In this document: piece after piece, positions 1,998 to 46,051 of the stretch | How positions within the stretch are numbered: the first letter of the stretch is position 1 | How the letters are laid out: every line of letters begins with the position of its first letter | Source of the DNA: Octopus sinensis | Taxonomy: Eukaryota | DNA length: 64,000 bases | Direction of reading: 5' to 3' | NCBI RefSeq assembly: GCF_006345805.1 | Contig: NC_043000.1 | Span: 73,780,001-73,844,000 of the forward strand | The notes under the pieces: generated by a model | What the model was told of the DNA's origin: nothing | What the model saw: only the letters and a program-made list of their open reading frames with translations | Database searches by the model: none | Program-made: the position numbers and the translations under genes

Positions 1998-2304
1998 ATA
2001 CAAGAAACCAGGAACTGGTTGAGTATTTGAAAAACAAAACAAGCACAAACATTACAGATTTCATAATACCTACACACAACACACCACCAGCACACATTCT
2101 CACAATAAAAATAAACAAAACAGTTTACAACGAAATAAAACAAATATTCCCTAACGATGTGGGATCGTTAGGGAAAAGTTTCTCTCAGAAACTTTACAAA
2201 AATATTATTGAAGCACCCGTGCAAAAGCACAAGGGAGCCACCCCCACCACCAACAACAGTAAGTAGAGCCTTTTCTCTCCTTTTTTTCCCCTAACTTTTG
2301 AAAC

Positions 2305-8170: not shown

Positions 8171-8212
8171 GAGCCTTTTTCTCCTTTTATTTTTTTTTCT
8201 CACCTTTGAAAC

Positions 8213-11200
8213 GTGGCAAAACTTAGAATCGGTTGCTTGAATATGAGAGGCCTCGGGTCACCTTGGAAACAGGGTCACCTGTTAAACGACCTGAGGTTTC
8301 ATGATGTGGATGTAGCAGCCATCAGTGAAACCAGGCTCTCCGACCCGCAGGAACTCGCAGCCCTTTTCGGCGGATACGAGATATTTCTATCTCCGTGTCG
8401 GCCGGGAGCGGGCGGTGGTGGTACTGTGGTGTTGTTTCGGAAGGGCCTGGACTTGAAAATAAGGACAGTCTTCCTGGATCCGGAAGGTAAGTTGGTGGTC
8501 CTCGACGTAGACGGTAGTGACGGCGGTGCTTTCAGACTGCTGGCTGCCTACGCTCCGACAGGAGCAGGGCAGTCGGATTATTTCAAACGTCCGGAAGTTT
8601 TCCTGGGAACGTCACGCACTCTAGTGCTAGTTGGGGATTGGAACGCTGTCTTAGACGAACGTTTCGATCGGGTGGGGCAGGGAAGCGTCTGATAAGAGAG
8701 GAGGGTGCAAGAGCCTCGCCAATCTACTCGGACGCTTTCAGCTGTCCGACAGATTTCGACTAGACAACCCGAATGTGCCAATGTGGACTTGGACCAATCG
8801 TATCGGGTCGTCTAGATCGTACTTAGATAGACTGTTTTGTAGGCCAGTGGATAAGGATAGCATAGGGTGTCCACAATTCCACATAGTCGACTACACGGAC
8901 AACAAATTCGTGATCTGTACGGTCGACTTAGATAGGCTACGTAGACAGGGACCCGGCTACTGGAAGCTGAACGCGTCGTTAACGGCGTGCAAAGCTTACA
9001 GAGACCGGATTAGTTTACTAGTTAAGCGGGCGCTCACGGGGGCAATCATCAACAACAACTGGTGGTTTGCCCTCAAGAGAGCAATTAGAGTAGAGTCGAT
9101 TAGGTTTAGTAAGACTCTAGCTATTGAACGTAGGAAGAGAGAGCGGATTTAGTTAAGAAACTAGACGAGGCTCTTGAGACTGGCATCGCGACCGACGTGT
9201 TGGCGGCAAGGTTGGCCCTCGACCAACACTTTGACGCCAAACACGAAGGCTGCGTTGTCAGAGCTAAGGCACGTTCGCTAAGCGGGGAGGGGATTAGAGC
9301 CACTCGATGGGCCCGCGTGGCGGAGGCGAAGCGAGGCAACAAAGCAACCATTCGGTCTTTGATGGACCAGAACGGGCGCAAGGTTACCGAACCGAAGCAG
9401 ATGTGTACGGTGTTTAAGCGGCACTTTTCTCAGCTGTTTGGGGTGAGCGGTGGTACGGCCAACAACGGTACAGACTTCAGTGTGTACCTGGACGGCCTAC
9501 CGCGGCTCTCGAACAACGAGGCAGAGTGCTGCGAAGGACCGATATCTGCCTGGGAAGTGGAGGAAGCGATGAAGAGTTGCACGAGAGGTAGATCGCCGGG
9601 TTTGGATGGTCTGCCCTACGAGCTTTACACTTCAATGTCAGACTTATTTGCGGGGCTGTTGGCAAACGTCTACTGCAACTGGCAGCAAAACGGGAGAATT
9701 CCTGCTTTTGTCTGTCGAGGGGTGGTGACTTTGCTAAAAAAAGGACCCAAACAAGGGGGACGTTATAGGGAATTTTCGGCCCATCACTCTGCTCAATGCA
9801 GAGTTGAAGATTTTGGCCAAGGTGCTAGCCAGAAATTGGCGCTTGTCGTGGACAAGCTGGTTGGCAAGACGCAGACATGCGCCGTGCCGACCAGGTCGAT
9901 ACACGACAACCTCCATCTCATGCGCTACATCATAGAGAGGGTGGGTAACGACGCTGGCGCGGGTGGGGCTTTGATCAATTTAGATCAGAGTAAAGCCTTC
10001 GATAGGGTCGACCATCGGTACCTGGCAGCTGTTCTCAGGCAGCCGGCTTCGGTCCAGTCTTCCGAGGGTGGGTCGCTGCTTTATACAGCAACATCTGCTC
10101 GGTGATACGGGTGAACGGTCACCTTTCGGAACCGTTCGACATCTCGCGTTCGGTCCGCCAAGGATGCCCTCTCTCCTCCCTCTTGTACATATTGACTCTC
10201 GAGCCATTACTGCGCAAGTTGGAGGCTTTGAGGGTATCCCGCGCGATCTAGGAGGCGGAAACAGCGTGTCTGCCTATGCCGAGACGACGTCACCGTGATG
10301 GTGTCGAGCCACAGGCACATTGGCCTGATTGGCGAGACACTAAACGAGTACGAAGCGGTGACAGGGGCAAAGATTAACGCGGAAAAGTCTGTGGGCTTGC
10401 AACTGGGCACCTGGAGAAGCAAGCCCATGCCGTCCAACAGCGTCGTAGGGCGCTGGACAGACGGACCCGTTAAACTGCTCGGGGTCTGGTTCGGTCCGGA
10501 CCTCCAGGTGAATAAAAACTGGGAAGAAGTGACGAGCAGGGTGGCACGTCTCACCCAGAAATGGGCCGAGAGGAAGCTGTCCCCGAAAGGTCGAGCGGAG
10601 GTGGCGAATGCATACATCGCATCCGTCATCTATTACCGCTTGACCGTCGTCCCTTGTCCCAACCGCTGGTTGGCCAAGCTGGTACGCCTGCTCTTCGACT
10701 TTTTGTGGAAGGGTCAGGTGCCACTGGTCAGGCGATCCATCTGCTGTCATCGACCGCTGAACGGAGGCATTGGCATGCCGTGGTTACTGATGCGCAGACA
10801 TGCGCTCAGGCTGCGATATCTCAAGCGTTTCCTAGACGGTGATCAGGTGTGGTCGTCTTTTGTCAGACGCGACTTTCCGCAGCTCGTCTCTTTGACAGAG
10901 CTGCAGACCTGGATCAAACGTAGACCGAGAAAGGGCGCCTGGCACCTCGAGTGCCGTCAAGCTCTCTCCGCCCTCCGCCAGGCGGGCAATGCGATCGGTT
11001 TTAGTTCCACTCAAGCGTTCTATAGAGGGTTAGTGGAGGGAAAATGCGACGACGTTCTCGGGGAAACTCTTGACGTTGATAACGAACTGAGCGATCTGTT
11101 CGGAAGGACTTCCGGGCTGGGGCCAATGGATAATTTCCAGTGCTACCGAGGGGCTCTGCTTTACACTTCAATGTCAGACTTATTTGCGGGGCTGTTGGCA

Positions 11201-12483
11201 AACGTCTACTGCAACTGGCAGCAAAACGGGAGAATTCCTGCTTTTGTCTGTCGAGGGGTGGTGACTTTGCTAAAAAAAGGACCCAAACAAGGGGGACGTT
11301 ATAGGGAATTTTCGGCCCATCACTCTGCTCAATGCAGAGTTGAAGATTTTGGCCAAGGTGCTAGCCAAGAAATTGGCGCTTGTCGTGGACAAGCTGGTTG
11401 GCAAGACGCAGACATGCGCCGTGCCGACCAGGTCGATACACGACAACCTCCATCTCATGCGCTACATCATAGAGAGGGTGGGTAACGACGCTGGCGCGGG
11501 TGGGGCTTTGATCAATTTAGATCAGAGTAAAGCCTTCGATAGGGTCGACCATCGGTACCTGGCAGCTGTTCTCAAGGCAGCCGGCTTCGGTCCAGTCTTC
11601 CGAGGGTGGGTCGCTGCTTTATACAGCAACATCTGCTCGGTGATACGGGTGAACGGTCACCTTTCGGAACCGTTCGACATCTCGCGTTCGGTCCGCCAAG
11701 GATGCCCTCTCTCCTCCCTCTTGTACATATTGACTCTCGAGCCATTACTGCGCAAGTTGGAGGCTTTGAGGGGTATCCCGCGCGATCTAGGAGGCGGAAA
11801 CAGCGTGTCTGCCTATGCCGAGACGACGTCACCGTGATGGTGTCGAGCCACAGGCACATTGGCCTGATTGGCGAGACACTAAACGAGTACGAAGAGGGTA
11901 TAGAGGGTTAGTGGAGGGAAAATGCGACGACGTTCTCGGGGAAACTCTTGACGTTGATGATAACGAACTGAGCGATCTGTTCGGAAGGACTTCCGGGCCG
12001 GGGCCAATGGATAATTTCCAGTGCTACCGAGGGGCTCTGCCTGTTCGGGATAAACTCTACCGGCACGGAAGTGCCGTCAGCCGGGCCTGCCCGAGGTGTT
12101 GCCAGGACGACGAAACCGTTCTGCACGCACCGGTCCAGTGCCCGAGTATTGCTGAACTATGGGTTTATGTCGAACAGCTACTGTCGCGCATAGGACGGAT
12201 CCGGCTATCAGCCGAATCCATAGTGAAGATTGCCCCACCGACAATGTGGAAGGGTCAGGTACACACTGTGGTGAAAGAGATTGTATGGTGGACCCGTTTG
12301 AAAGGGCTAAAGTCAGACACTTTCCTCTTTGGTCAAGGCCTCATCAACTTTTTCAAGTTTCACTTGAAAAGGAAGATGAGGTTAGAGAGGAGAGTGCTGT
12401 CCGATAGCAAGTTTTCTGAAAGGTGGGTGAATTGTGCGAGAATGGCCAGTATAAATGGACCAATTCTCAGGTTTCGCCTGTGA
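8213..12483 (+). pseudogene. ORF2 of Tx1 copy 2, frameshifted, RT segment duplicated
   Basis: ORF fragments 8213, 8775, 9197, 10295, 11340 and 11815 match copy 1 ORF2. Confidence 0.9.
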
Positions 12484-12821: not shown

Positions 12822-12865
12822 GTGAGGGTTGGAATTAACAAGATTAATGTTGGAACTCCCAGAAA

Positions 12866-13172
12866 ATGGCCGACCAATTCCCGGACGTCTGTGGAGGTCT
12901 TTATCGCGATGATTGTCTGCTTTATCTCCAAAACATTTCAAATCAAAAAATACAAAAGGTTAAGAATAGATTAGTTGGGTTTTTTTACATCGTTTTTGAC
13001 GATGAGTTAAATAAAGCTAATTTCTTAGACATTACTCTCAATTTACAAAATAGCTCGTACTTCCCATACCATAAACCTTCCACAAATCTCAAATATATTA
13101 GTCCTTACAGTAATCACGCTAGGGCAATTACTAAGAATTTAGTTAAAAACATTTCACTTAGATTATCTAAAT
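12866..13172 (+). pseudogene. Penelope-like element reverse transcriptase fragment
   Basis: GGLYRDD...NFLDITL...YHKP...YISPYSNH...NISLRLSKL, typical PLE RT core and thumb. Confidence 0.8.
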
Positions 13173-13204
13173 TATGCGCGTATTTTCCTTTTTTAATTTC
13201 TTTT

Positions 13205-13391: not shown

Positions 13392-13445
<54 letters not shown>

Positions 13446-13537
13446 ATAAAACGGTAAGATAACAAAAGAAAGAGACCTCAATATTATGTAAATAGAGGAA
13501 ATTTATCTATACAATATGTTACATTACTCGGTAGTCA

Positions 13538-13599
13538 AGATAAAACTCTGAGTTTCAGATGCCGAAGTGGAATCCACAACACCATCTCTTCGGTTATCT
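13538..13599 (-). ncRNA. Hammerhead-like ribozyme (variant core), left arm copy
   Basis: Reverse complement of 13612-13674. Confidence 0.5.
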
Positions 13600-13611
13600 G
13601 GCTAAATAGCC

Positions 13612-13674
13612 AGATAACCGAAGAGATGGTGTTGTGGATTTCCACTTCGGCATCTGAAACTCAGAGTTTTATCT
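13612..13674 (+). ncRNA. Hammerhead-like ribozyme (variant core CCGAAGA)
   Basis: AGATAA-CCGAAGA-GATG...CATC-T-GAAA-CTCAGAG-TT-TTATCT: 6 bp stem I, stem II, minimal stem III; U4C change and one extra base. Confidence 0.5.
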
Positions 13675-13696
13675 TGACTACCGATTAATGTAACAT

Positions 13697-13759
<63 letters not shown>

Positions 13760-15240: not shown

Positions 15241-16095
15241 ACGTACGTACGTACGTACGCATTCAGGTTTTGGACAAGCACAAACACATAGCCACACACA
15301 CACACACGGAGACATTTGGAGTCACACAGTGGTGCTAAATCCAGAAACATATAGCTAAGGAACAAAGTTCCTACCACACAGACAGGTCTGTGTCTTACAA
15401 CAGAGCTTATAGATAAAAAAAAATTATAAGTATATAACCAGCTTCCAAAAAATTCTAATTAATAATTATTATTAATTTGCATTTTGTGTATATCTCTTTT
15501 AGTGTAACAAAATGCAACAAAGTTGCATTTCTTTGGGACCTTGTTAAATTTCTTTCTGAGTTTTGCCAGAATATTTTTAAAAGGCATAGTTTAGATGAAG
15601 TTTGAATTTATAGTTTAACAACACCCAAGTTGATTTCGGTGAGAAATAATGTTTTCCCTTGTTTTTCTTTTTTCTTTTGCTATCAACTAATCTCATCAAA
15701 TATACTACAAAGACCTTTTCCCACTGAAATCGGAGTGGGGTGGGCCCTCAGAATCCTCCTCTCACCTCAGAGTTATATATTTCTGTGGGATGACGTCAGC
15801 AGCTGGGTGCACTGACCGGAGGTTGGGGCAACCAGAAGGGGCAGCCGTGAGGCGCGCGTAGGGAGCGGCGATTTCGGCCTTTTCGAACCAGGGTCATCGA
15901 CGTGTCGAGACGGGGGAAGACGTTGCTAAGGTTGGGTGAAGCAGCTGCTATCTTTAGCACTCGGGTCGGAGCTGTGTCGAAGGATCCGTTACCACTGAAG
16001 GGCTCCCTCGGAGCGAAGAGAAGGTAGGTGCCTTTATATTCGAATCGCGCACACACTACAAGCTATTTCGGCGCTCCACATAAGTCGTCACCACG

Positions 16096-16842
16096 ATGTC
16101 TGCGAAAATCAGGATCGCCAGCGACATCATCAGACCCTTCAATGGTGAAGGCGATGTAGTGGCCTGGATTCGTAAAATCAGGCTGGTGGCAAGACTGCAA
16201 GGTATAAGCGATGTGGCAAGTCTTATGTCGCTGTATTTAGAAGGGAGCGCGTTAACGCTATACCTTGAGATAGAGGATGAGGAACGCCTGAGCGAGGAAA
16301 AAATAGAGCAACGATTGCGGGATGCCTACACAGAATGTGAATACACAGCTTTTGCTAAGCTGGGTACGATTCGGTGGACAGGATGACAAGTGGACGAGTA
16401 CGCGGCAGAAGTTAGAAGGTTAGCGACGCTGGCTGGGTTTACGGGAGAAGGGCTGGAGAGAGCGGCGCGACTGGCCTTTGTAAATGGGTTCCCCGACGAT
16501 GTAGGGATTCACCTACAACGATTGCCCGGGATTAAAAAGATGGCGCTGAGCGAACTGGTGACTCAAGACCGCGTGTTGACGCGACACTCTGGGCGGAAGG
16601 CGATTGCGATGGCGGTGACGGAGGTGCTTAAAGACGGACGACGACCGGAGAAAGACGTACAGAAGCGGCCGTTCACAGGTCGGTGCTTTAGATGCCAGGG
16701 GTCGCACATGGCGCGGGACTGTACGCAACCGGGGCCCGTTTGCTATCGATGCAGGCAGACAGGGCACATCGCCCGTGATTGCGACCAGGGAAACGACCGC
16801 GAAGAAGTTGCTGCTTCTCGAACTTTCCCCGCAAACGAGTAG
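16096..16842 (+). pseudogene. Gypsy gag with premature stop
   Basis: CFRCQGSHMARDC and CYRCRQTGHIARDC. Confidence 0.85.
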
Positions 16843-19286
16843 AGGCGCTATTGGAGACGCTGCCATTAATTGACGTGGAGGCTTACACCATCGAGGACAA
16901 AGATTTTCAGGCGGCGTTCGGTGGTCAGTGGTGGACGATAGAGTGGCGATGGAAGGACGAGCCCGCGACGCTGGAAAACAGGGTGAGCTGTTACCAGCAT
17001 ACCCTGAAAGGCCACGCCAGGGTTGAGTTTGAAGACGAGGTGGAGAGGTGGATCGAGGAAGGGGTCCTTGTCCCTTGGGAGGAGGAGGTAGTGGATGGAG
17101 TGCTACCCCTGATGGCGGTGGTGCAGCCTACGATGGGAAAAGTCAGACCAGTATTGGACTTCAGGGAGCTAAAACAGCATATATCGTGTCTCACGGGAGG
17201 TGAGGCGACAGACATTTGTGGCGAGAGTTACGTGCGTGGAGACAGTCGACCGAGGCAGCGACGATTGTCGACTTGAAATCGGCATGCTTGCAGCTCCAAG
17301 TGAGCGACAAACTGTGGCGATATCAGCTGGTGCGGTACAAAGGCCGGACGTACTGTTTAACCAGGCTAGTTTTCGGGCTGAATTCCGCACCGAAGATCAT
17401 GGCGGCAGTCCGTCCTAGGGAAAGACGACAAGATTAGAAAGGCCACCAGCTCCTACATTGACGACATTTTGGTCGACGAAACTGTAGTGCCAGCCAACGA
17501 GGTAGTTAGACATCTGGAGAAGTTCGGACTGATTGCGAAGCCACCGGAGTCGATGGAAGGGGGAGCCGCGCTGGGGCTGAAGCTGCGAAGAGATAGATCA
17601 GGTGAATTGGTGTTCCGGAGAGGGAATGAAATCCCAGAGCTGAGTTCCAGTGTCAGCAGGAGAGAACTGTTCTCGGTGTGTGGGAAGTTGGTCGGTCACT
17701 ACCCGATCGCTGGATGGCTGCGTACGGCGTGTAATTACACCAAGAGATGAGCAGAGGGAGAGAGTTGGGGCGACAAGCTGGGAGAAGGGACGGTGGCGAT
17801 GATGCAGAAAATCCTAGAGAGGACGAGAGCGGAAGACCTGGTCAGGGGGAACTGGTACGTGCCCAAAACAGAATGCGGGACCGTCTGGTGTGATGCTAGC
17901 AGTATAGCGATAGGGGTTGTGTTGGCAATCGAAGGAGCTGCGGTGGAGGACGCGGTCTGGCTTCGGGAAGCAGATGATTTCAACCACATCAATGTCGCCG
18001 AATTAGACGCGGTGTTGAAAGGGGTGAACTTGGCCCTGAAATGGGGATGCGCACAATTGAAATCCGGACGGATTCGGCCACTGTGCTTGGCTGGGTAGGA
18101 TCAGTGATCACCGGTGAAAGGAGAGTGCAGACGAAAGGTGCCGCTGAGATGTTAGTGAAGCGCCGTCTAGGAGTTCTAGGTGAATTAATCGCCGAGTTCG
18201 GACTGAAGCTGAATGTGGTTTTCGTGCCTTCGGAGAAAAACAGGGCGGACGCACTGACCAGGGTGAAAAGAGCGTGGTTGAAAGAACCGGAGGAGGCCCG
18301 GAAAGGGATAGCTGCGGCGTGTCGGTTGGATGACTCCGAACTGAAGAGACTGCATGCTATGCATCACCTGGGTGTGGACAGGACCCTGTATCTGGCGAAG
18401 AAAATTGATGCTGACGTCATTAGGAGAAGCATCCGAAAGGTGGTCCGCAGCTGCGACAGGTGTCAGTCCATCGACCCTGCTCCGTGTGGGCATGAGCAGG
18501 GAAGCCTTTCGGTGGAGCAGAACTGGAAAAGGCTAGCTGTGGATGTGACACACTACCGTCAGGGAATGTACCTCTCCATGGTCGACTGCGGGCCAGGCCG
18601 GCTGGCCATTTGGAGGGAGTTGAGAACGGCATTGCTGACGAGATCGCGCAGATCCTGAACGGGATATTTTTAGAGAGAGGTCCCGTGGAAGAACTACTGA
18701 TGGACAAGGGGGCGGAGTTTCGTTCGAAAGCATTGAGGGTTATGCTTGATCGGTGGAATGTGCGTCGCTTGTTCAGAGCAGCGTATAGGCCAAGCGGTAA
18801 CGGGATCGTGGAGAGGCACCATTGGACAGTCAAGGCCATAGCGGAAAGAGGGCACATTTTGCCGCTGGAAGCAGTTTTTTGGTACAACTTGTCTCCCCGA
18901 TCCGGACAAGCTGAGGAATCTGTGCCGCAGAGAGCTGTATTCAAATATGAATGGAGGTACCCGAGCAAAGCGCCAGAGGGTCACGAGGAAAAGAAGGGAC
19001 CCGTTTGCGTGAAAATAGGGGAGGAAGTCTGGGTTAAGCCACCAAAGGCGAGCTGTACGTCTAATGGAGCAGAGGAACGGTGACGGCGGTCAATTCCAGA
19101 AACAACGTCTCCGTGGATGGAATGCCGCGACACGTCTTGGACCTTCGCAGGATTGTCGCTTCGACGGACGACGATTCTGGAGAGGGGGAGAACGAGGTGC
19201 CCAGCTTGAGAAGATCTCGACGCGCAAGACGCCCTCCCGGTTGGATGGTGGACTACGACATGGAGCGGAGAGATTGTGATCTTTAA
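16843..19286 (+). pseudogene. Gypsy pol (RT-RH-INT), frameshifted, no protease motif seen
   Basis: KVRPVLDFRELK, FGLNSAP, WCDAS, HHLG..CDRC, VDVTH, GNGIVER. Confidence 0.85.
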
Positions 19287-19576
19287 GATCAGGGTGGCGT
19301 GTGGGATGACGTCAGCAGCTGGGTGCGCTGACCGGAAGTAAGGGTAACCAGAAGGGGCAGCCGTGAGACGCGCGTAGGGAGCGGCGATTTCGGCCTTTTC
19401 GAACCGGGGTCGTCGACGTGTCGAGACGGGGGAAGACGTTGCTAAGGTTGGGTGAAGCAGCTGCTATTTTTAGCGTTCGGGTCGGGGCTGTGTCGAAGGA
19501 TCCGTTACCACTGAAGGGCTCCCTCGGAGCGAAGAGAAGGTAGGTGCCTTTATATTCGAATCGCGCACACACTACA

Positions 19577-19765
19577 GTTTCTTCGTTTTCTTTTTCGCGT
19601 ACTATCAACTAATTTCAGCTCCTAGTATATTGCAAAGGACTTTTTCCCCCTTTGCGGTGTATTAGGAGGTCAGAATAGTGGCTGTTTTTTATTCCTAATA
19701 ACTGCTGTTTTTAGTATACTAAACAACCACGTTAAGGACCGGCCACCTTTGAGTTTATTTGTTGT
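19577..19765. repeat. Dispersed repeat also present at 15650-15725 and 23761-25345
   Basis: Shared CTATCAACTAAT...CCTTTGCGG...ATAACTGCT..TAGTATACTAAAC...CACGTTAAGGAC. Confidence 0.75.
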
Positions 19766-19876
19766 TTTACACAGCAAATTCCGATATAATCGTAATCTAC
19801 ACCATCTGAGACGTACATGTAGAAAATTTTATTAACAAATTATCCATGTTTCAGAAAGTTACCACACACACACATG

Positions 19877-19943
<67 letters not shown>

Positions 19944-19949
<6 letters not shown>

Positions 19950-20195
19950 GTTTTTGTGGCTGGACGCCCCTCCTAACGCCACCACTTTACAGAGTGGACG
20001 GAGTGTTTTTAAGTGGCATTGTACGGGAGCATGGTTCTAATGGCTGAATAACCTTCCTAACACCATCACTTCACGGCGTCGATTGAGTGCTTTTACGTGG
20101 AACCACACAGAAGCATTGTTTCAACGGCTGGATACCCTTCCTAATACCACCACTTTACAGTATGGACAGGATGCTTTTACGTGACACCAACACAG
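19944..20195. repeat. About 3 tandem ~80 bp units related to the RTE 3' UTR
   Basis: Repeated GGCTGGA..CCCTTCCTAA..CCACCACTTTACAG..GGAC..GTGCTTTTACGTG; similar to 32055-32100. Confidence 0.65.
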
Positions 20196-20271
20196 TGCCA
20201 TATATATATATATATATATAATTTTTATTTTATTTTATCTAGTTTCAGCTTACGAGCTGTGGCATGCTGGG

Positions 20272-20315
<44 letters not shown>

Positions 20316-20326
20316 ACACACACACG

Positions 20327-20361
<35 letters not shown>

Positions 20362-22148
20362 TGTTATGTGTAGTTTCGTTCTAATGGGATAGACAACTCA
20401 AATGAAAGCCATTGTTATTGTTTTACGTGTTTATTTACTTTTCATGTTACACGAACAGTCAACATTCGGCATTTATACTTTAGACACAGTTCGTACTGTT
20501 CTAACAAAATAGTGCCAAAAGTGGGGATGTATTCTACATACGTATACCTGCGTATACACATAGATATAACTGTGTAACATCCCTTCTTCTTGAAAAGAAA
20601 TAAAGGGGTCTTTTGGCAGTGAAGACAAACACAAGTAGTCTCCCTTACTCTAATGGATTGTCACCGCGAGGTGGCAATCCTGCAGCAGTTTCGTGAGATT
20701 ATTCTGCCTCTGCTTTGTAATCTAACTGAATTAGTTACTTATCTTTTCATTTTCTTTTTTTTTTTTCTTTAACAGTATCGAACCGGTGGCAGAATGTTCT
20801 TTCTCCATCTGGTGGATCTTGTGCTTCGCACCGGTGTCTGGGGTGTGTTGTTGGGCTGCTGATGGGTGGTTGGTGCCCGTTGGGGTGATGATTCTGTGGG
20901 TGTTGTCACTGATGCAGCAGGTGTTGTACACGTTGTCCTCGACAGCTTTGGTGTTGGACGGATGTGGGCCCTGTTGCGTCTCAGCTGCCTACCAGATTCC
21001 GTTTCTATTATATACGATCTTGGAGTTTCAGCTCTACTGTCAACCTGTGCTGGAATCCATGTTTTAGTTATGGGATCTTGAGTATGTACATGTTGTCCTC
21101 CAAGTATCTCAGGTATTGTGCATGTTTGTTGTAATGTTTCTGTGATTGTTCTTGAGTGGCTGCTAGCTTTGCCCTTGTCTCTTCCTGGTCAATAGGAGGT
21201 TGGATCTTAGTTGGCAGGCTAGTTTTGTACTGTGCCTAGATACAATATATACACTGCTGCCTAGTGAGCTTGTTTGTAAGGTAAGTGAGGCCATTTGTTT
21301 GGTAGTGGCTTCGAATGTTCTTGCATTGTTACCTATGGGGGATTTCTGAACTTCTTTATGAGCACACCTCCATATTAATTGATCAACAATTCTTTCGTCC
21401 TTATCTTTGAATTTGCATTTTTCGGCAACATTCTTTAGTCTGGACAGGAAATTGTCAATCGTTTCTTGTGGGTCTTGTTTCAGGCCCTGGAATTCGTATC
21501 TGTGAATTCTATGGTTCGATCTGGGCTCTAGGTGCCTTTCAAATTTCTCTGAAAGTGTGTCTGGGTTATTGCAATCTGATTCCGACATGTCCCAGCTATT
21601 GAATAGGTCTAGACCCTTCTCGCCCGTCCATAAAAGGATATAGCTTACCTTTTCATCTTCAGTTGTGCCTTTCAGGAAACTTTTGAAAGCTAGTTGAGTT
21701 TTCTGTTTGAATTTCTTGAACGCTTCTACGATATCACCGGAGTCCCAGTTCATGATCGGATGTAGATTCATCTGTACGGCGACGGGGGTCGCCATTTTGG
21801 ATTCTCGTGTATGTGTGTCCGAAGACGAAGCGATGTTTTGTTTGTTAAATTTCTGGTTCGTTGCGTTTCTGTTTTGTTGTAAAGGCACAGTTTCCGATTA
21901 ATTATTTACCGCTGCCACCATGTTATGTGTAGTTTCGTTCTAATGGGATAGACAACTCAAATGAAAGCCATTGTTATTGTTTTACGTGTTTATTTACTTT
22001 TCATGTTACACGAACTGTCGACATTCGGCGTAGTGATACATTTATACTTTAGACACAGTTCGTACTGTTCTAACAAAATAGTGCCAAAAGTGGGGATGTA
22101 TTCTACATACGTATACCTGCGTATACACATAGATATAAATGTGTAACA
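20362..22148 (-). mobile_element. Small non-autonomous LTR element carrying only gag
   Basis: LTRs 20362-20579 and 21921-22148 (TG...CA); PBS TGGTGGCAGCGGT at 21908-21920 (tRNA-Leu type); PPT AAGAAGAAGGGA at 20580-20591; inserted in a (TA)n tract. Confidence 0.88.
21163..21888 (-). CDS. Gypsy-type gag (capsid) ORF, likely truncated
   Basis: FKKFKQK..LLWTGEKGLDLF..FERHLEP..RYEF..QDPQETIDNFLSRLK..AEKCKF..IVDQLI. Confidence 0.75.
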   Translation of the reverse strand: MPLQQNRNATNQKFNKQNIASSSDTHTRESKMATPVAVQMNLHPIMNWDSGDIVEAFKKFKQKTQLAFKSFLKGTTEDEKVSYILLWTGEKGLDLFNSWDMSESDCNNPDTLSEKFERHLEPRSNHRIHRYEFQGLKQDPQETIDNFLSRLKNVAEKCKFKDKDERIVDQLIWRCAHKEVQKSPIGNNARTFEATTKQMASLTLQTSSLGSSVYIVSRHSTKLACQLRSNLLLTRKRQGQS

Positions 22149-25830: not shown

Positions 25831-26080
25831 ATATATATTATTCAATAAACATAATACATGTATTTATGTGTTATTATTAGTTTCATGTGTGTAATAAACT
25901 TATTCATTATGACATGAGGGTAGTGTGTATGATTTAAGACACTATACTTGTTAAAAACACTGTTTGGTATGCTCTCATCTCATGAAACTAATAGTAGCAC
26001 ATAATACATATATAGTGTTTATTAAATAACATTTAACTCTCATCAGGATTACTTTTTTTACCATCTCGGAACAGTACACC

Positions 26081-26123
<43 letters not shown>

Positions 26124-26135
26124 ATATATATATAC

Positions 26136-26166
<31 letters not shown>

Positions 26167-26384
26167 TAATAATAAATATTAGGGAATAAATCCAAACTTA
26201 CAGGGAAAAATCAGATTTAGGATTGAATCCAATTTTATAGTAAAATATTATATTATATTAAATTAGAGACAAAACCACTATTAGGCAAATCATACAATGA
26301 AAAACTTAAGCCAATACATAAGATTATTTAATTTATATTATTTAAATATATAACAAAATTATTAAAAAAATATAATTAATATAT

Positions 26385-26448
26385 CACTACGATCGTTTCA
26401 TGGCTGTTAATTTCTTTAAATTTTCAAGTCACAGTCATTCATCAGGTG
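26385..26448 (-). ncRNA. Hammerhead ribozyme (type I, minimal palindromic stem III)
   Basis: CAC-CTGATGA-ATGACTGT...ACAGCCAT-GAAA-CGATCG-TA-GTG. Confidence 0.75.
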
Positions 26449-27123
26449 GTTTAAATATCAGACTCAATATTCAATAAACCATTAAATATTTATTATTTAG
26501 TAATAAAATATTTAGTAATAAAATGAACAACCATCTATAATCTAACTATAATTAAAAACAAAACCTAACTAACTAAAATAATCTATTATAATAAGTACTA
26601 CAAATCACCTGGTATATTTATAATACTATTACATAAAACAACAAATAGGGAGCTAATTAAGGCTAAGAAATAATCATTATTTATCAAGAAATTTATTATA
26701 TAAGTAAAGTAACTTGTGTCTGCATTTTATTTTGCGCTCATCACAGGTATTCAGTAAATTATCATGCTTATAAAATAAAATTTCCTTAAACTCATTAGAG
26801 CATAAATAACAAAAATTCGCTCCTATAGTATATGATTTAGTTTTACTAATTATTTCCCAAGATAAATTATAATTAATAAATTTCTTGATAAATAATGATT
26901 ATTTCTTAGCCTTAATTAGCTCCCTATTTGTTGTTTTATGTAATAGTATTATAAATATACCAGGTGATTTGTAGTACTTATTATAATAGATTATTTTAGT
27001 TAGTTAGGTTTTGTTTTTAATTATAGTTAGATTATAGATGGTTGTTCATTTTATTACTAAATATTTTATTACTAAATAATAAATATTTAATGGTTTATTG
27101 AATATTGAGTCTGATATTTAAAC

Positions 27124-27187
27124 CACCTGATGAATGACTGTGACTTGAAAATTTAAAGAAATTAACAGCCATGAAACGATAGTAGTG
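27124..27187 (+). ncRNA. Hammerhead ribozyme, right-arm copy (stem III CGATAG, one substitution)
   Basis: CAC-CTGATGA-ATGACTGT...ACAGCCAT-GAAA-CGATAG-TA-GTG. Confidence 0.7.
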
Positions 27188-27348
27188 ATATATTAATTAT
27201 ATTTTTTTAATAATTTTGTTATATATTTAAATAATATAAATTAAATAATCTTATGTATTGGCTTAAGTTTTTCATTGTATGATTTGCCTATTAGTGGTTT
27301 TGTCTCTAATTTAATATATATACATATATATATATATATGTGTGTGTG

Positions 27349-27420
<72 letters not shown>

Positions 27421-29503
27421 AGAGAGAGAGAGAGATGTATATATATATATATATACTACACATATGAGGAATTCTGTCAGTGGGTGTGTTTGTTCGTGGA
27501 ATTGTTAGCAAATCCTCCTACATTGTCTTATCGATTTTGATGAAACTTGACACGTGAGTAGAACTCAGGTCTGGAAACCTCGTGACATACTTAGATTGTT
27601 GAAAACAAAATCAATAATAGGGCCCCTGGAATGGATCGTTATATCTTCTACATATAACGAATATATCTTATTTAAACACCCAAGGGAAATAACCCATAGC
27701 ACCTGCACTTACAATTGTCAGTTTTTAGCGAAGCGATCAATATTTGATTCTCACGATCAGCGGACCTAATTCTGCATTTCACTACTTACAGTTTTGATCT
27801 GCTAAACCTTATTATTGCACTTTCTTGATTTGAATTTTAAACCTTAAAGACTTCATGCAAATTTATATACATACATACTTTTTTGCGCTTATATATAGTA
27901 CATTTATATATTAGCTTTAATAAATTAGCCTTTGATAAAGTTAACCTTTAAAATGCTACGATAAGTAAGAGTATGAATGAGTATTTCTATTTCACAAGCT
28001 GCTCTAATGCGACAACGGCGATCTCAAGTAAGTCTCCAATTCATTATATTTGATATTTACTAAATCAAACAATTATTCTTTGTCTATTCTACTTCAATAT
28101 CTAAACAGTTATATACATATTGCTGTAATTAATTTAGACATTGCATGAATAGACATTTTTTCAATATCTCCAAATAACTAAATGCTGGTAATCTATGTAG
28201 AGTTTTCAGTTAAATTTGATTACATTTTAAATGCCCATAACTCCGATAATTCTGCATATAAAAAGACGAGTGACAATGATCTCATCTTTGTGGCTAGGGA
28301 TTTCAATGGGCATGTCGGACGGCAGCTTGGTATCTTCCACGGTGTTCATGGGAGACATGGAATTGGTTCCTGAAATGAAGACAGAACAAGGCTACTGGAG
28401 TTCTGCTTGCCAGATCGATTTCATTCTCACCAGACAGCAGGATGCGTGTCTGGTTGCTCTTAAGTACAAAGACCGTCTTTCATGAAGAATGTAACCTCCA
28501 CTCCAGCATAAATTAGTCATTAGCAACTTTAGACTCCATGCCAGAAGGATGCCAAGAAGCAGACCAATCTGGAAAAGAAGGATTTGGAAAGGACCCTTCA
28601 TATAGTCAGAGATTTAGGGACATCCTAATTGAGAAATTTGATGAGTGGGAGGAGGAGCTACAAACTTATGACAAAGAGGGAAATGAGAATTCCTGCAGGA
28701 CATCTTGCTGAGTGTCACAGACCAAATCTGTGGCCGGTGCAAATTCCTATCCAGACTGAGGGTAACGTGGTGGTGGAACAATACTGTAGACAGGGCCATT
28801 AGGGCAAAGAAACAGGCCTGGAAGAGTAGGGGCAGCAGGGAACTATATCAGATAGCCAGACGAGAAGCTAGGAGACAGGCGTATCTAGCCAAGAGAGAAG
28901 CAGAAAAGAATTTTTCCTATGTTTAGTGTTGTGAAGACCAAAGAACTTAAGTATTTCGGATTGCAAGACAGTGTGTGAGAGAAATGTGTCTGCATGAATG
29001 ATGGTGAACTTGCTTTCAATGGGTCTGCAAAGAAAGAGGTTTGGAGATGCCGTTATGAAAGACTGCTGAATGTGGAGAATGAATGGGAGGAGAGTGCCAA
29101 ATGTTGACCCAATTGAGGAACCAGGTACCCGAATCAATAGTACTTTGGTAGATAAAGCAATTAAGGATATGAAGACAGGGAAAGCCACCAGACCATCAGG
29201 AATCACCACTGAGATGCTTCAAATATCTGGTGGTGTGGGTTATGGTCTAGTCATCCATTTTGTAAATCAGGTGGTTCATGAAGGAGTCATATGCAATGAC
29301 TTGTGTAACAGCATAGTCAACTGCTACAAAGGTAAAGGTGATGCCTTAGAGAGAAATAATTACAGAGGTAATGGAAGTTACGGAGAGAGCCATAGCTTAA
29401 CTAATTGGGGAGAGAGTTAGTCTAGATGAGATGCAGTTTGGTTTTGTGCCAGGTAGAAGCACCACTGATAAGGCAACTACAGGAGAAATACCTAGACAAA
29501 GAT

Positions 29504-35027: not shown

Positions 35028-36985
35028 TGGCAAAGTTTCTACAGCTGAATGTCCTTCCTAACGCCAACCACCCCGAGAGTGTAGTGGGTGCTTTTATGTT
35101 TCACTGGCATGAGGGCCAGTCAGGTGGTACTGGCACGACCATGCTCATATGGTGCTTTTTACGTGCCACCTGCACAGGAGTCAGTCCGGTGGAACTGGCA
35201 GCGACCACGCTCGAATGGTACTTTTTACGTGCTACCGGCACAGGAGCCAGTTAGGCAATGCTGGTTACAATCACGCTCAAATGGTGATTTTTACGTGCCA
35301 CAGGCATGGGAGCCAGTCAGCGGCCCTGGCAACAATCACACTCAAATGATGCTTTTAACATTCTACTGGCACAGGTGCCAATCAGGTGGTGCTGTCATCG
35401 GCCACAACAATGATTTCACTTGCCTCAACAAGTCTTTGCAAGCGTAGTTTATTGTTAAGGGTAACCTTAAATGGGCTGGTTATACAGCACTGGCATAAGA
35501 CACAGTTATGGTCTCATTTGGCTTGCCAGGTCTTCTCAAGCACAGGTTGAGCTCATCTCCGAAGGTCTCGGTCATTTGTCATTGCCTTGGTGAGGCCCAG
35601 TTTTCCTCAACTGCTAGGGTGCGACGCTTCTTCACACAACTATCCTTATCCATTCGCAACACATGACCATACCAGCAGTCATCTCTCTTGCACACCACAT
35701 CTCATGCTTCTTAAGTACAAATTTTCTTTCAGGGCGCTTACACTCTTTTGTGTATGCACACTGATATTACACATCCAGCGGATCATACTGGCTTCATTCC
35801 TTGCAACCTTCACGTGTCCTCAGCAGTCACAGCCCATGTTTCACTGCCATGTAGCATGTCTGTTTGCACACATGCTTCATACAGTCCACCAGCAGGTGTA
35901 TGAGCTCTCTGAATTTGCCCGGGCTATTCTTATTCTAGCAGCTACACTTTCAGAGCATCCACTCCAGCTACTGACTTGGTCACCTAGGTAATGGAAGCTA
36001 TCAACCACTTGTAGTTTTTCCCCCTGGAATGTGATGGAAGCTGTTCTCAGCACGTTTTCAGTGTTTATTGCTCCTGAGCATTTACCACATACAAAAACTA
36101 TCTTCCCAGTTAGCTTTCCTTTGATATTGCTGCACCTCTTATGTGTCCATAGGTTAAACAGGGTACATCTTATGGAATTTCTACCTACGCCTTTTCTACA
36201 GATTGAGCAGAGCCGTCTACCTGAAAGGATTTGTAGATGTCTGACTTCCTACTAATTAAAATTTTCGCTTTTGCTAGATTGACTCTAAGACCCTTTTATT
36301 CTAGACCTTGCTTCCATACCTGAAATTTCTCCTCTAGTTCTGATAGTGACTCAGCAATTAGAGCAAGGTCATCAGCATAGAGGAGCTCCCAGGGGCATCC
36401 TGTCTTGAATTCCTCTGTTATTGCCTGGAGGACTATGACGAATAAGAGAGGGCTGAGGGCTGATACTTGGTGGACCCTACCCCTACTCAGAATTCTTCCC
36501 TGTACTTGTTGCCAACTCTCACCTTACTGACAGCACCCCTGTACATGGCTTGTACAACTCTCACTAACCATTCATCTATTCCTAGTTTCCTCATTGATCA
36601 CCAGATAAGGGATTGGCGGACCCTACCAAAGTATTTCTCCATGTCAACGAAAGCCAGGTACAGAGGTTATTCTTTGGCTAGGTATTTCTCTTGCAGCTGT
36701 CTTACCAGAAATATAGCATCAGTGGTGCTTTTTCCTGGCACAGACCCAAACTACATCTCATCTAGACAGACTCTCTCCCTAATTAGTTGGGCTATAACCC
36801 TCTCCGTGACTTTCATTACCTGATCCACCAACTTGATACCTATGTAATTATTTGCATCTAATAGGTCACCTTTACCTTTGTAGCAGTTGACTATTATGCT
36901 GCTACACCAGTCATTGGGTATGACTCCTTCGTGTATCACCTGGTTGACTATAAGCCTAACTAGACTATGGCCGACACTACCATAC
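35028..36985 (-). mobile_element. 5'-truncated RTE-clade LINE
   Basis: IPNDWCSSIIVNCYKGKGD, LLYADDL region; same 3' UTR subrepeats as the 31976-35000 copy. Confidence 0.85.
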
Positions 36986-37061
36986 ATACATATATATATA
37001 TATATACAATATATATATTATATATTATTATATATATACATATATATATAATATAATATAT

Positions 37062-37094
<33 letters not shown>

Positions 37095-37143
37095 TACCTA
37101 TATATATATATATATCTACATAATATATATATATATTATATAC

Positions 37144-37185
<42 letters not shown>

Positions 37186-37187
37186 TA

Positions 37188-37219
<32 letters not shown>

Positions 37220-37266
37220 TATATATATATTACATATTATATACATATATATATATATATCATATA

Positions 37267-37306
<40 letters not shown>

Positions 37307-37433
37307 CATGATATTATATTATATATACATATATATTATATATATACATATATATATATATATTATACATATATATATATATATATACATCTATATATAT
37401 ATCTATATATATATAATACACATATATATATAT

Positions 37434-37483
<50 letters not shown>

Positions 37484-37496
37484 TTATATATATATA

Positions 37497-37571
<75 letters not shown>

Positions 37572-37704
37572 TATATATCTTATATATATATACATATATA
37601 TATATATATAATAATTATACATATATATATCTATATATATATCTTACATATATATTATATATAATCTATTATATATCTATATATATCTATATATATATAT
37701 ATAC

Positions 37705-37755
<51 letters not shown>

Positions 37756-37838
37756 AGACATATATATAATATATATTATATACATATATATATACATATA
37801 ATATACATATATATATACATATATATAATATATATATA

Positions 37839-37882
<44 letters not shown>

Positions 37883-38091
37883 ATATATATATATAATATA
37901 TACATATATATATAATATATATATATATACATAGATATCTTATATATAATATATATATCTATATATATATATATATCTATCATATAAGATATATATATAC
38001 ATATATCTATAATATATATACAATATTATAATATATATATATATACATATATATATATCTACATATATATATATATATATCTAATATACTC

Positions 38092-38125
<34 letters not shown>

Positions 38126-38441
38126 CATATATAATATATATACATATATACATACTATATATATACATATACTATAATATATATATATACATATATATAT
38201 ATATAATATATATATACATATATATATATACATATATATATATATTCATATATATTATATATCCATATCTATATATATATATATATATATACATATATAC
38301 TATATATTATATATATACATATATATATATATATCTATAATATATATATATATATATATATCTATATATCTATACATTATATTATATATATAATATAATA
38401 TATATATATACACTAATATATATATATATCTATAGACTATA

Positions 38442-38491
<50 letters not shown>

Positions 38492-38871
38492 ATATATCTA
38501 TATATATATATATATACTTCATATATATACTTATATATATATATATATACAATATATATATATATAATATATATATCATATATATATATCTAATATATAT
38601 ATAACATATATATATATATATATATATAATATATATTATAGATATATAATATATCTATTATATAGTATATATATATATTATACATATATATATATATATA
38701 TACATATATATATAATATACTATACAATTATATATATTATATATATATACATATATCTATATATAATATATATATATATATTATATATATATCTATATAT
38801 ACATATATATATATCATATCTATACATATATATTCTATATACATATATATATATATATATATTATATATAC

Positions 38872-38907
<36 letters not shown>

Positions 38908-38981
38908 TATATATACATACATAGCATATATCTATATCTATATATACTATATATATCTATATATACATATATTCTATATCC

Positions 38982-39035
<54 letters not shown>
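36986..39035. repeat. About 2 kb imperfect (TA)n tract
   Basis: Direct inspection. Confidence 0.95.
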
Positions 39036-39036
<1 letters not shown>

Positions 39037-39208
39037 TGAGTGTATTTTTGCCTTGTTAACAATTAACACGAAAAAAAATAGTTACCACAGGGTAGCAAAA
39101 ATCACACAAGTAAAGAGGTTGTAACGCCTTGTTCATAAAGGTAGAAACTTCGTGTTTACGTGGAATGTTTTGTATAATATATAAATCAGGTATAAATCAA
39201 ATACTTTT

Positions 39209-39295
39209 ACTTTCGACACATGTTTCGAAAATTCCACTGATATTATTCAAAAGAATAAATGGTATAAAACAATGCAATCTTCTCTTCAGGAAAGT
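39209..39295 (-). ncRNA. Hammerhead ribozyme (canonical core, GUC site)
   Basis: ACTTTC-CTGAAGA-GAAGATT...AATTTTC-GAAA-CATGTG-TC-GAAAGT. Confidence 0.8.
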
Positions 39296-39343
39296 GAAAA
39301 AACTAAACTCGTCAATAAGATATTTTAGCATATATATATATAT

Positions 39344-39459: not shown

Positions 39460-39642
39460 AGTGATAGTCTATTCTATTCTATTATTCTATTTATTCTTTT
39501 ATCTACTTTATCACTGATTCTTTTGACCACTCCCCTAAGAAAGACAGTTTGCGCCATGCCTACCCCAAAAAGTCCCCCACCACCACCACCACCACTTTAA
39601 ATCTGCCTAAATGTATAAATGCCAAAACTATTCTTGTCACCA

Positions 39643-39693
39643 AGCTTCCTGATGATTTCTTTTGAATGAAACAGTTCTAGTCCTGTAGAAGCT
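39643..39693 (+). ncRNA. Hammerhead ribozyme (compact, GUA site)
   Basis: AGCTTC-CTGATGA-TTTC TTTT GAAT-GAAA-CAG TTCTAGTC CTG-TA-GAAGCT. Confidence 0.85.
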
Positions 39694-39906
39694 CCTTCTA
39701 TAAAATAAATTAATTTACTCTGCTATGTATTGAGTACTTTATTTACTGTGGTTAACCCCGACTCAACCCGGGACCTACATATATATATATATATATATAG
39801 AAATTCAGGGTGAGCACTTGATAATTGTAAGCACCTGTATATACCGTTTGGTGGTGTAGGTGGTGGAGTAAATTAATCAAAATAAAAACATGATGCCAAG
39901 GATTCA

Positions 39907-39984
39907 GCGGTACATATGTTTCGGGCCTTTATTAGAAGGATTTATAACAATGCATAATGTGTGTCTATGGCCTTCTTCAGCCGC
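39907..39984 (-). ncRNA. Hammerhead ribozyme (palindromic minimal stem III)
   Basis: GCGG-CTGAAGA-AGGCC...GGCCC-GAAA-CATATG-TA-CCGC. Confidence 0.78.
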
Positions 39985-40243
39985 GCACAATTACTACCTC
40001 AAGGACATGTATTACATCAAAATTTCTACGTTGGGGATGCAAATCCTCTCATTCGCGTACGACATAATGCGGCAACAGCACAAAAATGAAGCGTCCATCT
40101 CGTCCTTCTCTACATTGAGAGAAGGACGAGATGGACGCTTCATTTTTGTGCTGTTGCCGCATTATGTCGTACGCGAATAAGAGGATTTGCATCCCTAACG
40201 TAGAATTTTGATGTAATACATGTCCTTGAGGTAGTAATTGTGC

Positions 40244-40321
40244 GCGGCTGAAGAAGGCCATAGACACACATTATGCATTGTTATAAATCCGTCTAATAAA
40301 GGCCCGAAATATATGTACCGC
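40244..40321 (+). ncRNA. Hammerhead ribozyme, right-arm copy
   Basis: GCGG-CTGAAGA-AGGCC...GGCCC-GAAA-TATATG-TA-CCGC. Confidence 0.75.
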
Positions 40322-40354
40322 TGAATCCTTGGCATCATGTTTTTATTTTGATTA

Positions 40355-40394
<40 letters not shown>

Positions 40395-40409
40395 TTATTA
40401 TATAGAAGG

Positions 40410-40460
40410 AGCTTCTACAGGACTAGAACTGTTTCATTCAAGAGAAATCTTCAGGAAGCT
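40410..40460 (-). ncRNA. Hammerhead ribozyme
   Basis: AGCTTC-CTGAAGA-TTTC TCTT GAAT-GAAA-CAG TTCTAGTC CTG-TA-GAAGCT. Confidence 0.85.
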
Positions 40461-41679
40461 AGTTGACAAGAATTGTATTGGCATTTATACATTTAGGCAG
40501 GTTTAACGGGGTGTTGGTGGGGGACTTTTTTGGGGGTAGGCATAGCACAAAATATCATACTTGGGGGAGTGGTCAAGGAGTCAGTGTTAAATTAGATAGA
40601 AGAATAAATAAAAATAAAAATAAAAAAATAAAAAAATAAAAAATAAAAAAATAAAATAAAAAAACCTATATATAAAAAAAGGGGGGATAGAGTTTTAGGT
40701 AAATAAGGAGATTCTCACTTATACCTATGCACACATGTATACATACATACACACACATACAAACACATATACATATACATACACACACATATATATACAT
40801 ATATATACACTTACACATACACATGCATATACATATCTACACATACACATATAGACAGATAAATGGACTGGCTGTCATAGCCAAGATGTTTGTGACCAAG
40901 CGGCCAAAGATAACAAAAGTAATAAACAGAAGATAATAAAATTAAAATTAGGGAATGGGCCTGTATTAGTATGTGTATATATATGTGTGTATGTGTAGGT
41001 TTGCATAGGTACACATATGTATATGTATACATGTATGTATATGTATGTATGTGTGTGTATATGTGTGTGTATGTGTATATATGTGTATATAGGGACTAGT
41101 GCGCTGTGTGTGCATGTGTGTGTGTGGATATGTGTGTGTATGCGTGTATGTGAGTATGTGTGTGTATGTGTATATATATTTTTCTGTGCGTATATGTATG
41201 TGAGGTTGTGTGTGTATATATACATGTGTGTATACGTGTATGCATGTGAGTGTGTGTGTGTATACATATATGTGTATGTGTAGATATGTATATGCATGTG
41301 TATGTGTAAGTGTATATATATGTATATATATGTGTGTGTATGTGTGTATGTATATGTATATGTGTTTGTATGTGTGTGTATGTATGTATACATGTGTGCA
41401 TAGGTATAAGTGAGAATCTCCTTATTTACCTAAAACTCTATCCCCCCTTTTTTTATATATAGGTTTTTTTGTTTTTTTTATATATAGGTTTTTTTATTTT
41501 ATTTTTTTATTTTTTTATTTTTTTATTTTTATTTATTCTTCTATCTAATTTAACACTGACTCCTTGACCACTCCCCCAAGTATGATATTTTGTGCTATGC
41601 CTACCCCCAAAAAAGTCCCCCACCAACACCCCGTTAAACTTGCCTAAATGTATAAATGCCAATACAATTCTTGTCAACT

Positions 41680-41730
41680 AGCTTCCTGAAGATTTCTCTT
41701 GAATGAAACAGTTCTAGTCCTGTAGAAGCT
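41680..41730 (+). ncRNA. Hammerhead ribozyme
   Basis: Identical to 40410-40460 on the opposite strand. Confidence 0.85.
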
Positions 41731-41818
41731 CCTTCTATATAATAAATTAATTTTACTCTGCTATGTATTGAGTACCTTATTTACTGTGGTTAACCCCGAA
41801 TCAACCCGGGACCTACAT

Positions 41819-45967: not shown

Positions 45968-46051
45968 CTTCTCCGAATTTAGTTTCCCCGAAAGTTTTAA
46001 ACTGCACGGCTGGATGCACTTGCGTGCTTTATCAGCAAATTTGGAATGGTA

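Follow-up and report, generated by a model that had tools for sequence, protein, structure and literature searches.

A hammerhead-bearing palindrome in Octopus sinensis interpreted as a truncated Penelope-like element of the Hydra clade

The closest described relatives of the locus analyzed here are Penelope-like elements (PLEs) of the Hydra clade. As characterized in PMC8557442, this clade carries RWK, DKT and CxCX5C motifs, a C-terminal CxxC and CxH, hammerheads and (TA)n targets, and Fig. S7 of that paper labels the C-terminal CxxC/CxH as Hydra-specific. Truncated copies, an inverted 5' copy, a one-sided tail and a bias toward (TA)n have all been described for PLEs (PMC8557442, PMC3846280), and the origin of the inverted insertions is named as unresolved in PMC8557442. 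The hammerheads of these elements have been studied in vitro. Minimal PLE hammerheads showed no cleavage as monomers and low cleavage as dimers and trimers, according to PMC4209133. The hammerhead of the element PAc required protein and was dispensable for insertion in vitro, as reported in PMC11167929.

Here, we describe a palindrome in a 64-kb stretch of Octopus sinensis DNA (64,000 nt, hereafter the window; positions are counted from its first letter). In our view its best explanation is a young, dead-on-arrival Hydra-clade PLE insertion made by target-primed reverse transcription followed by fold-back of the cDNA, a reading to which we assign a probability of about 0.85. A sequence-only reading of this DNA had taken the palindrome to link the hairpins to PLEs. 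Such a link is not new: the arrangement is the insertion structure already described for PLEs in the papers cited above.

The insertion, its endonuclease remnant and other copies of the family

The insertion spans 26175..27318 and can be read as a 5'-truncated Hydra-clade PLE copy on the minus strand with an inverted partial copy on the plus strand at its 5' end. The left arm (26254-26698, minus) contains the final ORF codons, the stop codons and the 3' UTR of the sense copy, and the right arm (26874-27318, plus) repeats these 445 nt in inverted orientation but lacks the tail. The two arms align without gaps and differ at 2 of 445 positions (26281/27291 and 26391/27181), a divergence of 0.45%. 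Between them lies a single-copy spacer, or hairpin loop, of 175 nt (26699..26873). Both the palindrome with its 175-nt spacer and the very small number of arm differences had been correctly recognized from the letters. On the left, the element extends a further ~79 nt (about 26175-26253) that are unpaired on the right. The focal locus therefore has the architecture of a PLE insertion: a 5' truncation, an inverted 5' copy and a tail at one end. (TA)n/(TAA)n adjoins both outer ends of the palindrome. The left target flank is a (TA)n/(TAA)n microsatellite (26080..26174) and the right one a (TA)n/(TG)n/(GA)n microsatellite (27319..27460), and no target-site duplication was discernible in these (TA)n-type flanks. 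The host DNA looks rich in AT microsatellites, and the locus is also flanked by SINE-like repeats, which may resemble cephalopod SINEs.

The minus strand encodes a 68-aa peptide within 26883-26680 that is followed by two stops and is exactly the one quoted in the sequence-only reading. Its final codons lie inside the left arm and its first isoleucine overlaps the right arm. The segment 26680..26878 (minus) comprises the last 66 codons of a predicted RT-endonuclease ORF, a GIY-YIG C-terminus with W, CxxC, E, N, E and CxH. An exhaustive phmmer search with the peptide identified 84 proteins with E-values of 1e-3 or lower, the lowest being 1.3e-7. In an alignment of the peptide with 21 homologues (22 sequences), W, C25, C28, E31, N45, E49 and C54 were invariant and H56 nearly so. 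One homologue, P0018 (696 aa), matched over residues 634-696, its last 63 aa, with 45% identity, and carries RLRW, DKT, YRDD, CxC..C and YIG, the signature of an RT plus endonuclease. Pfam GIY-YIG scored above cut-off in one of 10 homologues scanned (P0024) and below cut-off in three more. Among 40 long homologues from a profile search, we found RW[KR] in 25, DK[TS] in 30, DKG in 4, YxDD in 37, CxC..C in 38 and the C-terminal motif in 34; the C-terminal counts are partly circular because the homologues were chosen with the peptide, whereas the RT motifs are not. The protein ends 9-20 aa past the CxH in the long homologues and 12 aa past it in the focal peptide. A profile built from 83 matches without the query gave the focal frame 77.7 bits compared to 4.4 bits for the next of 1998 window segments, a comparison that is also partly circular. 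Thus, a single RT-EN ORF with a C-terminal GIY-YIG endonuclease is documented through the homologues, and the window is without the YIG part. Pfam gave no match for the 68-aa peptide itself and no RT family for P0018 or five other long homologues (6 proteins). Word-indexed protein searches with the peptide yielded no relative at longer or near lengths, and a scan of metagenome contigs produced 329 pattern matches, of which 0 were confirmed.

The peptide has both CxxC and CxH, contrary to the end of the Penelope/Poseidon endonuclease. Since the motifs of the peptide and its homologues are the Hydra traits given in PMC8557442, the fragment is of Hydra type rather than Penelope/Poseidon. On this sequence evidence, the focal palindrome is almost certainly the stump of a Hydra-clade Penelope-like retroelement. 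It had previously been described as enclosing a Penelope endonuclease C-terminus. The assignment to PLE GIY-YIG proteins stands (84 homologues, Pfam in P0024, the last 63 aa of P0018 aligned), but the clade is Hydra, as judged by CxxC..E..N..CxH, and not Penelope proper. The ORF remnant is without the YIG catalytic motif and without the whole RT and so encodes no working enzyme. The locus is an inert retroelement stump. Elsewhere in the window, a Hydra-type RT fragment lies between microsatellites at 12860-13180 (plus), with YRDD, FLDITL... and HKP..NH (TBLASTN E 2e-13 with P0024); it could belong to the family of the focal element or to another.

Part of the stretch is present in 20 of 24 public runs, which may derive from other species. 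We compared 26165-26960 with four of these runs, in which 10462, 2214, 3136 and 94 contigs were placed. The contigs show that the focal element belongs to a multi-copy family. Twelve contigs, from three of the four runs, match up to 26878, beyond which they depart from the window with 16 letters common to all of them. These letters are in frame, have 0 stops in five complete codons (read by hand) and supply the Leu-Lys of a conserved W-x-L-K motif with the spacing of the homologue alignment. Because other copies continue in frame past 26878, the focal ORF is cut at this position, and 26874-26878 are consequently shared between the sense copy, where they are part of the ORF, and the inverted arm. 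The point of contig divergence in this way places a 5-nt microhomology, complementary to 26694-26698, at the inversion junction. A 5-nt match in 80%-AT sequence has p about 0.004 for one fixed position and is weak alone.

Contig ends onto (TA)n were found in all four runs, in line with the (TA)n seen at both focal flanks, and they cluster at 26249-26257 (at least 119 contigs) and at 26175 (at least 56 contigs). These positions are the two ends of the focal insertion, indicating a family with two 3' termini ~75-80 nt apart. The one-sided tail (26175..26253, minus) is the segment between these preferred termini. The tail and the 3' end folded no better than shuffled sequences (z 0.27 and 0.82) and thus lend no support to a start-site stem-loop, and a six-frame reading of the tail found neither a Hydra N-terminus nor first ORF codons. 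Separately, the tail contains a perfect splice-donor hexamer at 26197-26202 (minus), about 22 nt from the outer terminus, that may be due to chance (~2%, a rough estimate); PLEs can have a 5' UTR intron, as noted in PMC8557442. Tail patterns had 0, 0 and 0 matches in viral, prokaryote-genome and metagenome contigs. No contig in the four runs spans the focal junction (depth 0 at 26894-26920), which carries no evidential weight. A full-length ORF joined to the focal UTR was not recovered from the public-run contigs, which provided the 16 further in-frame letters upstream and no long contig.

Hammerhead motifs at the locus and elsewhere in the window

A minimal type I hammerhead motif is present in the left arm at 26385..26448 (minus). 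It consists of a 3-bp stem I, CUGAUGA (26445-26439), a stem II of 3+4 bp, GAAA, and a palindromic stem III, ACGATCGT (26396-26389 on the minus strand), and its predicted cleavage site falls after 26388. The second copy (27124..27187, plus) has a stem III that is not palindromic any more, because one of the two arm mismatches (27181) falls in it. The earlier description of a 3' UTR hammerhead with a palindromic stem III is therefore accurate for the left arm but not for the right. The core and its three stems sit 134 and 213 nt from the two 3' termini. In our analysis of variants among the copies (40 of 68 listed; five seen only in run X7 dropped and two at one site merged), none of those listed fell in the hammerhead core, stem I or stem III. 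The core pattern had 7 matches in the 64-kb window compared to a shuffle mean of 0.34, with 0 of 100 shuffles reaching 7, and a stem-checked scan found 9 motifs compared to a mean of 0.13 (30 resamples). Rfam reported no hammerhead and nothing at gathering score in the window, and at E<=10 gave microsatellite-driven miRNA models only.

We next consider how these motifs would fold. Computed as a monomer, the left motif has a stem III pair probability of 0.002 and a hammerhead fold of -2.6 kcal/mol compared to -6.8 kcal/mol for the MFE. In computed homoduplexes, stem III of the left copy forms 8 bp at -10.0 kcal/mol and that of the right copy reaches -0.5 kcal/mol. A left stem III that is self-complementary and predicted to be unstable as a monomer agrees with the model of cleavage as dimers that Cervera and de la Pena set out in PMC4209133. 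By contrast, in a 1144-nt transcript of either strand the motif is computed to pair with the opposite arm (about -690 kcal/mol). Each strand has one sense hammerhead, buried in the 445-bp arm duplex, and cis-dimer cleavage would thus be unavailable at the focal locus. A hammerhead is the customary 3' motif of the clade, and the palindromic stem III of the focal one would lend itself to dimer formation where the source element yields tandem RNAs or RNAs that pair in trans. The proposal of dimer cleavage accordingly keeps its footing in the self-complementary left stem III but fails in cis, where the copies are on opposite strands, the arms form a duplex and the plus-strand copy cannot pair with itself. 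If the locus were transcribed, read-through RNA would form a 445-bp duplex that buries the hammerhead, so that the likelier effect would be dsRNA for silencing or editing. We also considered selective breakage of stem III in one arm. It was seen in 2 of 4 hairpins compared to ~0.77 expected from mismatch counts, and we attribute it to chance.

The window contains three further hammerhead hairpins, with sequences unrelated to the focal one or to each other. Like the focal hairpin, each is embedded in (TA)n and is extended at one end by ~55-80 unpaired nt. The first (13444-13711) has arms at 13501-13603 and 13608-13711, a 4-nt loop and a ~55-nt one-sided tail; each arm has the variant core CCGAAGA together with stem III ACTCAGAGT, resembling in this the hammerheads that PMC8557442 lists for Hydra elements (File S2). 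The second (39800-40359, arms within 39869-40359) has 242-nt arms, a 6-nt loop and a ~69-nt tail, and the stem III palindrome ACATATGT is present in one arm and altered in the other. The third family is represented by a solo 3' end (39460-39785) and a hairpin (40389-41815) with 465-nt arms (40389-41751), a 413-nt spacer and a ~64-nt tail. Its solo end and hairpin are 87% alike, and its stem III is 4 bp with an 8-nt loop. ORF sequence is kept only in the focal hairpin, and the link of the other three to PLEs accordingly rests on hammerhead, tail and target.

Several other repeats were observed in the window. A solo 290-nt piece between (TA)n tracts (39036-39330) has a hammerhead at 39207-39297 (minus) with stems of 6, 7 and 3-4 bp, and ~2 kb of degenerate (TA)n (36980-39035) lies directly upstream of the cluster of hammerhead-bearing ends. 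Two 57-nt direct copies (86% alike) starting CTATGAGCAGTACTGAA and an older 130-nt inverted repeat beside (TA)n occur at 52815-52970 and 53338-53700; a hammerhead scan of these two segments found none. A LINE-like element forms a ~5.9-kb direct repeat at 546-12483 (RVT_1, 2858-4735; zf-RVT, 4739-5737) with copies 92-97% alike. Finally, LTR retroelement remnants with integrase zinc-binding, gag and DUF7041 matches are present at 16000-22000 and 42800-52500.

Age of the insertion and origin of the inverted arm

Comparison with other copies of the family bears on both the age of the insertion and its template. The listed variants include 12 arm sites at which the majority of other copies depart from the window, and at 12 of 12 the two arms agree on the window's letter. 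The arms share these minority letters yet differ at 2 sites, arguing that they derive from one template. In the ORF, 7 of 8 majority-differing sites among the listed variants are third positions (P=0.003); for all listed ORF sites the numbers are 10 of 15 third positions (P=0.009) and 8 of 15 synonymous. Since the ORF differences are mainly at third positions, the divergence is likely to have arisen in an active lineage. These patterns suggest that the copy is young and stems from an active lineage that had diverged, and they speak against an old insertion whose arms were homogenized by conversion.

How might such a copy have acquired its inverted arm? The RT/GIY-YIG protein of an autonomous copy elsewhere would have cut the (TA)n tract, as the flanks and the biochemistry of PAc suggest. 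Reverse transcription would have begun at the outer 3' terminus (~26175) and stopped early at 26878, two ends that other copies display. The 3' end of the cDNA, which has a 5-nt match to its own complement at 26694-26698, may then have folded onto this site and copied 445 nt of itself. Synthesis would have ended at the inner terminus (~26254), and the product would have been joined to the other (TA)n end. A stop at the inner terminus followed by this joining would leave a tail on one side only, the pattern seen at the focal locus. Self-priming was argued from junction palindromes by Arkhipova et al. in PMC3846280. Fold-back is favored by near-zero loops, the junction microhomology and the shared alleles. 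It predicts near-zero loops and one-sided tails, and we found loops of 4 and 6 nt in two of the three other hairpins and tails in 4 of 4. We therefore consider fold-back of nascent cDNA the somewhat more probable route to the inverted arm.

Its principal competitor is twin target-primed reverse transcription, in which both nicked strands would prime cDNA, at the outer and inner start sites, and the products would be joined by the 5-nt microhomology. The templates would be two RNAs of one source locus, or one RNA used twice. According to PMC11167929, PAc cleaves both strands and extends each of them, its tail is set by a pair of adjacent start sites, and it is modeled as a dimer. Furthermore, the outer end of each arm of the focal palindrome is one of the family's two termini, and a right arm ending at a family-preferred terminus is explained more simply by two priming events than by fold-back. 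It is this end of the inverted arm that keeps twin priming in contention. However, independent truncations should rarely stop within 4-6 nt, as in 2 of 4 hairpins, and 12 of 12 shared minority alleles would require a single active source. We judge twin priming possible but distinctly less probable than fold-back.

Alternatively, the insertion could be older, its arms kept identical by arm-to-arm gene conversion, such that arm identity would provide no date. In keeping with this idea, about 2.7% of arm sites deviate from the majority of other copies, every deviation being common to both arms, and the window's letter at 26569 is absent from all contigs of the four runs. The single-copy spacer, which could not be converted, nevertheless has an open frame and mostly third-position differences, unlike random decay, and we regard this history as improbable. 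The insertion had been called recent on account of its similar arms, and the copy does look young: its arms are 0.45% apart, its frame is open and third codon positions account for most of its differences from other copies.

It is very unlikely that the hairpin is a MITE- or retrozyme-like non-autonomous element that amplifies as a unit by means of its two hammerheads. The 3' end is covered far deeper than the ORF in the run contigs, as such an element might predict, and retrozymes have been proposed to derive from PLE pLTRs (bioRxiv 10.64898/2026.07.22.740005). But retrozymes, as described in that preprint, are head-to-tail tandems, whereas the focal locus is a single head-to-head pair. In addition, another copy has its opposite-strand joint elsewhere, at 26374/26456 (1 contig), and junctions are hence variable, while each strand of the focal hairpin offers one sense hammerhead buried in duplex. 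Perfect palindromes are a known class of artefact. A fold-back chimera of AT-rich repeat generated in the library or assembly is nonetheless the least likely account, even with the focal junction unconfirmed in reads: there are 2 mismatches between the arms, the end of the right arm coincides exactly with a family terminus, and the one-sided-tail layout recurs in three unrelated families of the window and in PMC8557442 and PMC3846280.

Relation to described elements

The literature surveyed, to the exclusion of subscription journals, Repbase and Dfam but including a 2026 repeat annotation (PMC13282606), describes in the portions available neither the focal family nor a tail of 75-80 nt. The focal family matches no published family compared, the Repbase Hydra families being represented in this comparison by their File S2 hammerheads only (PMC8557442). 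Through this locus, a hammerhead-bearing repeat of high copy number can be assigned to the Hydra clade, which has been sampled poorly. The locus also defines where the copy was truncated, the 5-nt microhomology at its junction and the two 3' termini of the family, all of which are relevant to the way in which inverted PLE insertions arise. Should the autonomous parent be found, it would represent a new family within Hydra, one that seems to have been active recently. More tentatively, Hydra-type and related PLEs in this genome may routinely complete insertion by fold-back of the nascent cDNA, their two fixed 3' termini being separated by 55-80 nt, roughly double the tail length published. A large proportion of insertions would then be hairpins in which the hammerhead is buried, and these could supply dsRNA for silencing or editing directed against the family. 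This generalization is speculative and we hold it to be rather less probable than not. If it is true, four hairpins from four families in 64 kb imply that the genome holds enough junctions for fold-back to be told apart from twin priming, a question about PLE replication that is still open.

Among known systems, the Hydra-clade PLEs of PMC8557442 (Penelope-13_HM, Hydra-2_Amil and Hydra-1_Obim) are alike in the C-terminal CxxC..E..N..CxH and (TA)n targets, and also have, at the 3' end, a type I hammerhead whose stem III is short and near-palindromic. Penelope-13_HM is listed, like the focal locus, as having an inverted and 5'-truncated copy at the 5' end, with hammerheads on each of the two strands. 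Compared by eye, the focal peptide and hammerhead differ from those of Hydra-1_Obim, and the hammerhead differs from all in File S2. The focal element further differs from the Hydra PLEs described there in its longer 3' UTR (about 500 nt), 3-bp stem I and long loop II, and its tail is ~75-80 nt compared to the 30-40 bp given for PLEs.

The Penelope/Poseidon elements Adineta vaga Pen2a (PMC3846280) and Anolis PAc (PMC11167929) share the tail at one end and AT-rich targets. As in the focal insertion, the 5' inverted repeat of Pen2a overlaps the direct copy by a few bases, and the tail of PAc is defined by two RT start sites. Unlike the focal peptide, the Penelope/Poseidon endonuclease is described as CCHH without the C-terminal CxxC/CxH. 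Likewise, the Penelope/Poseidon pLTR and tail include the first ORF codons, of which the six-frame reading found none in the focal tail.

The minimal type I hammerheads of metazoan PLEs reported in PMC4209133 have a short stem I, long stem II and palindromic stem III, like the focal motif, and that paper already reports dual motifs 100-700 bp apart on opposite strands. In contrast to those hammerheads, one of the two focal copies, both predicted from sequence, has lost the palindrome. Finally, non-LTR retrozymes (bioRxiv 10.64898/2026.07.22.740005) resemble the focal locus in having a type I hammerhead of probable PLE origin; they are tandem, head-to-tail and non-coding, whereas the focal locus is head-to-head and keeps ORF sequence.
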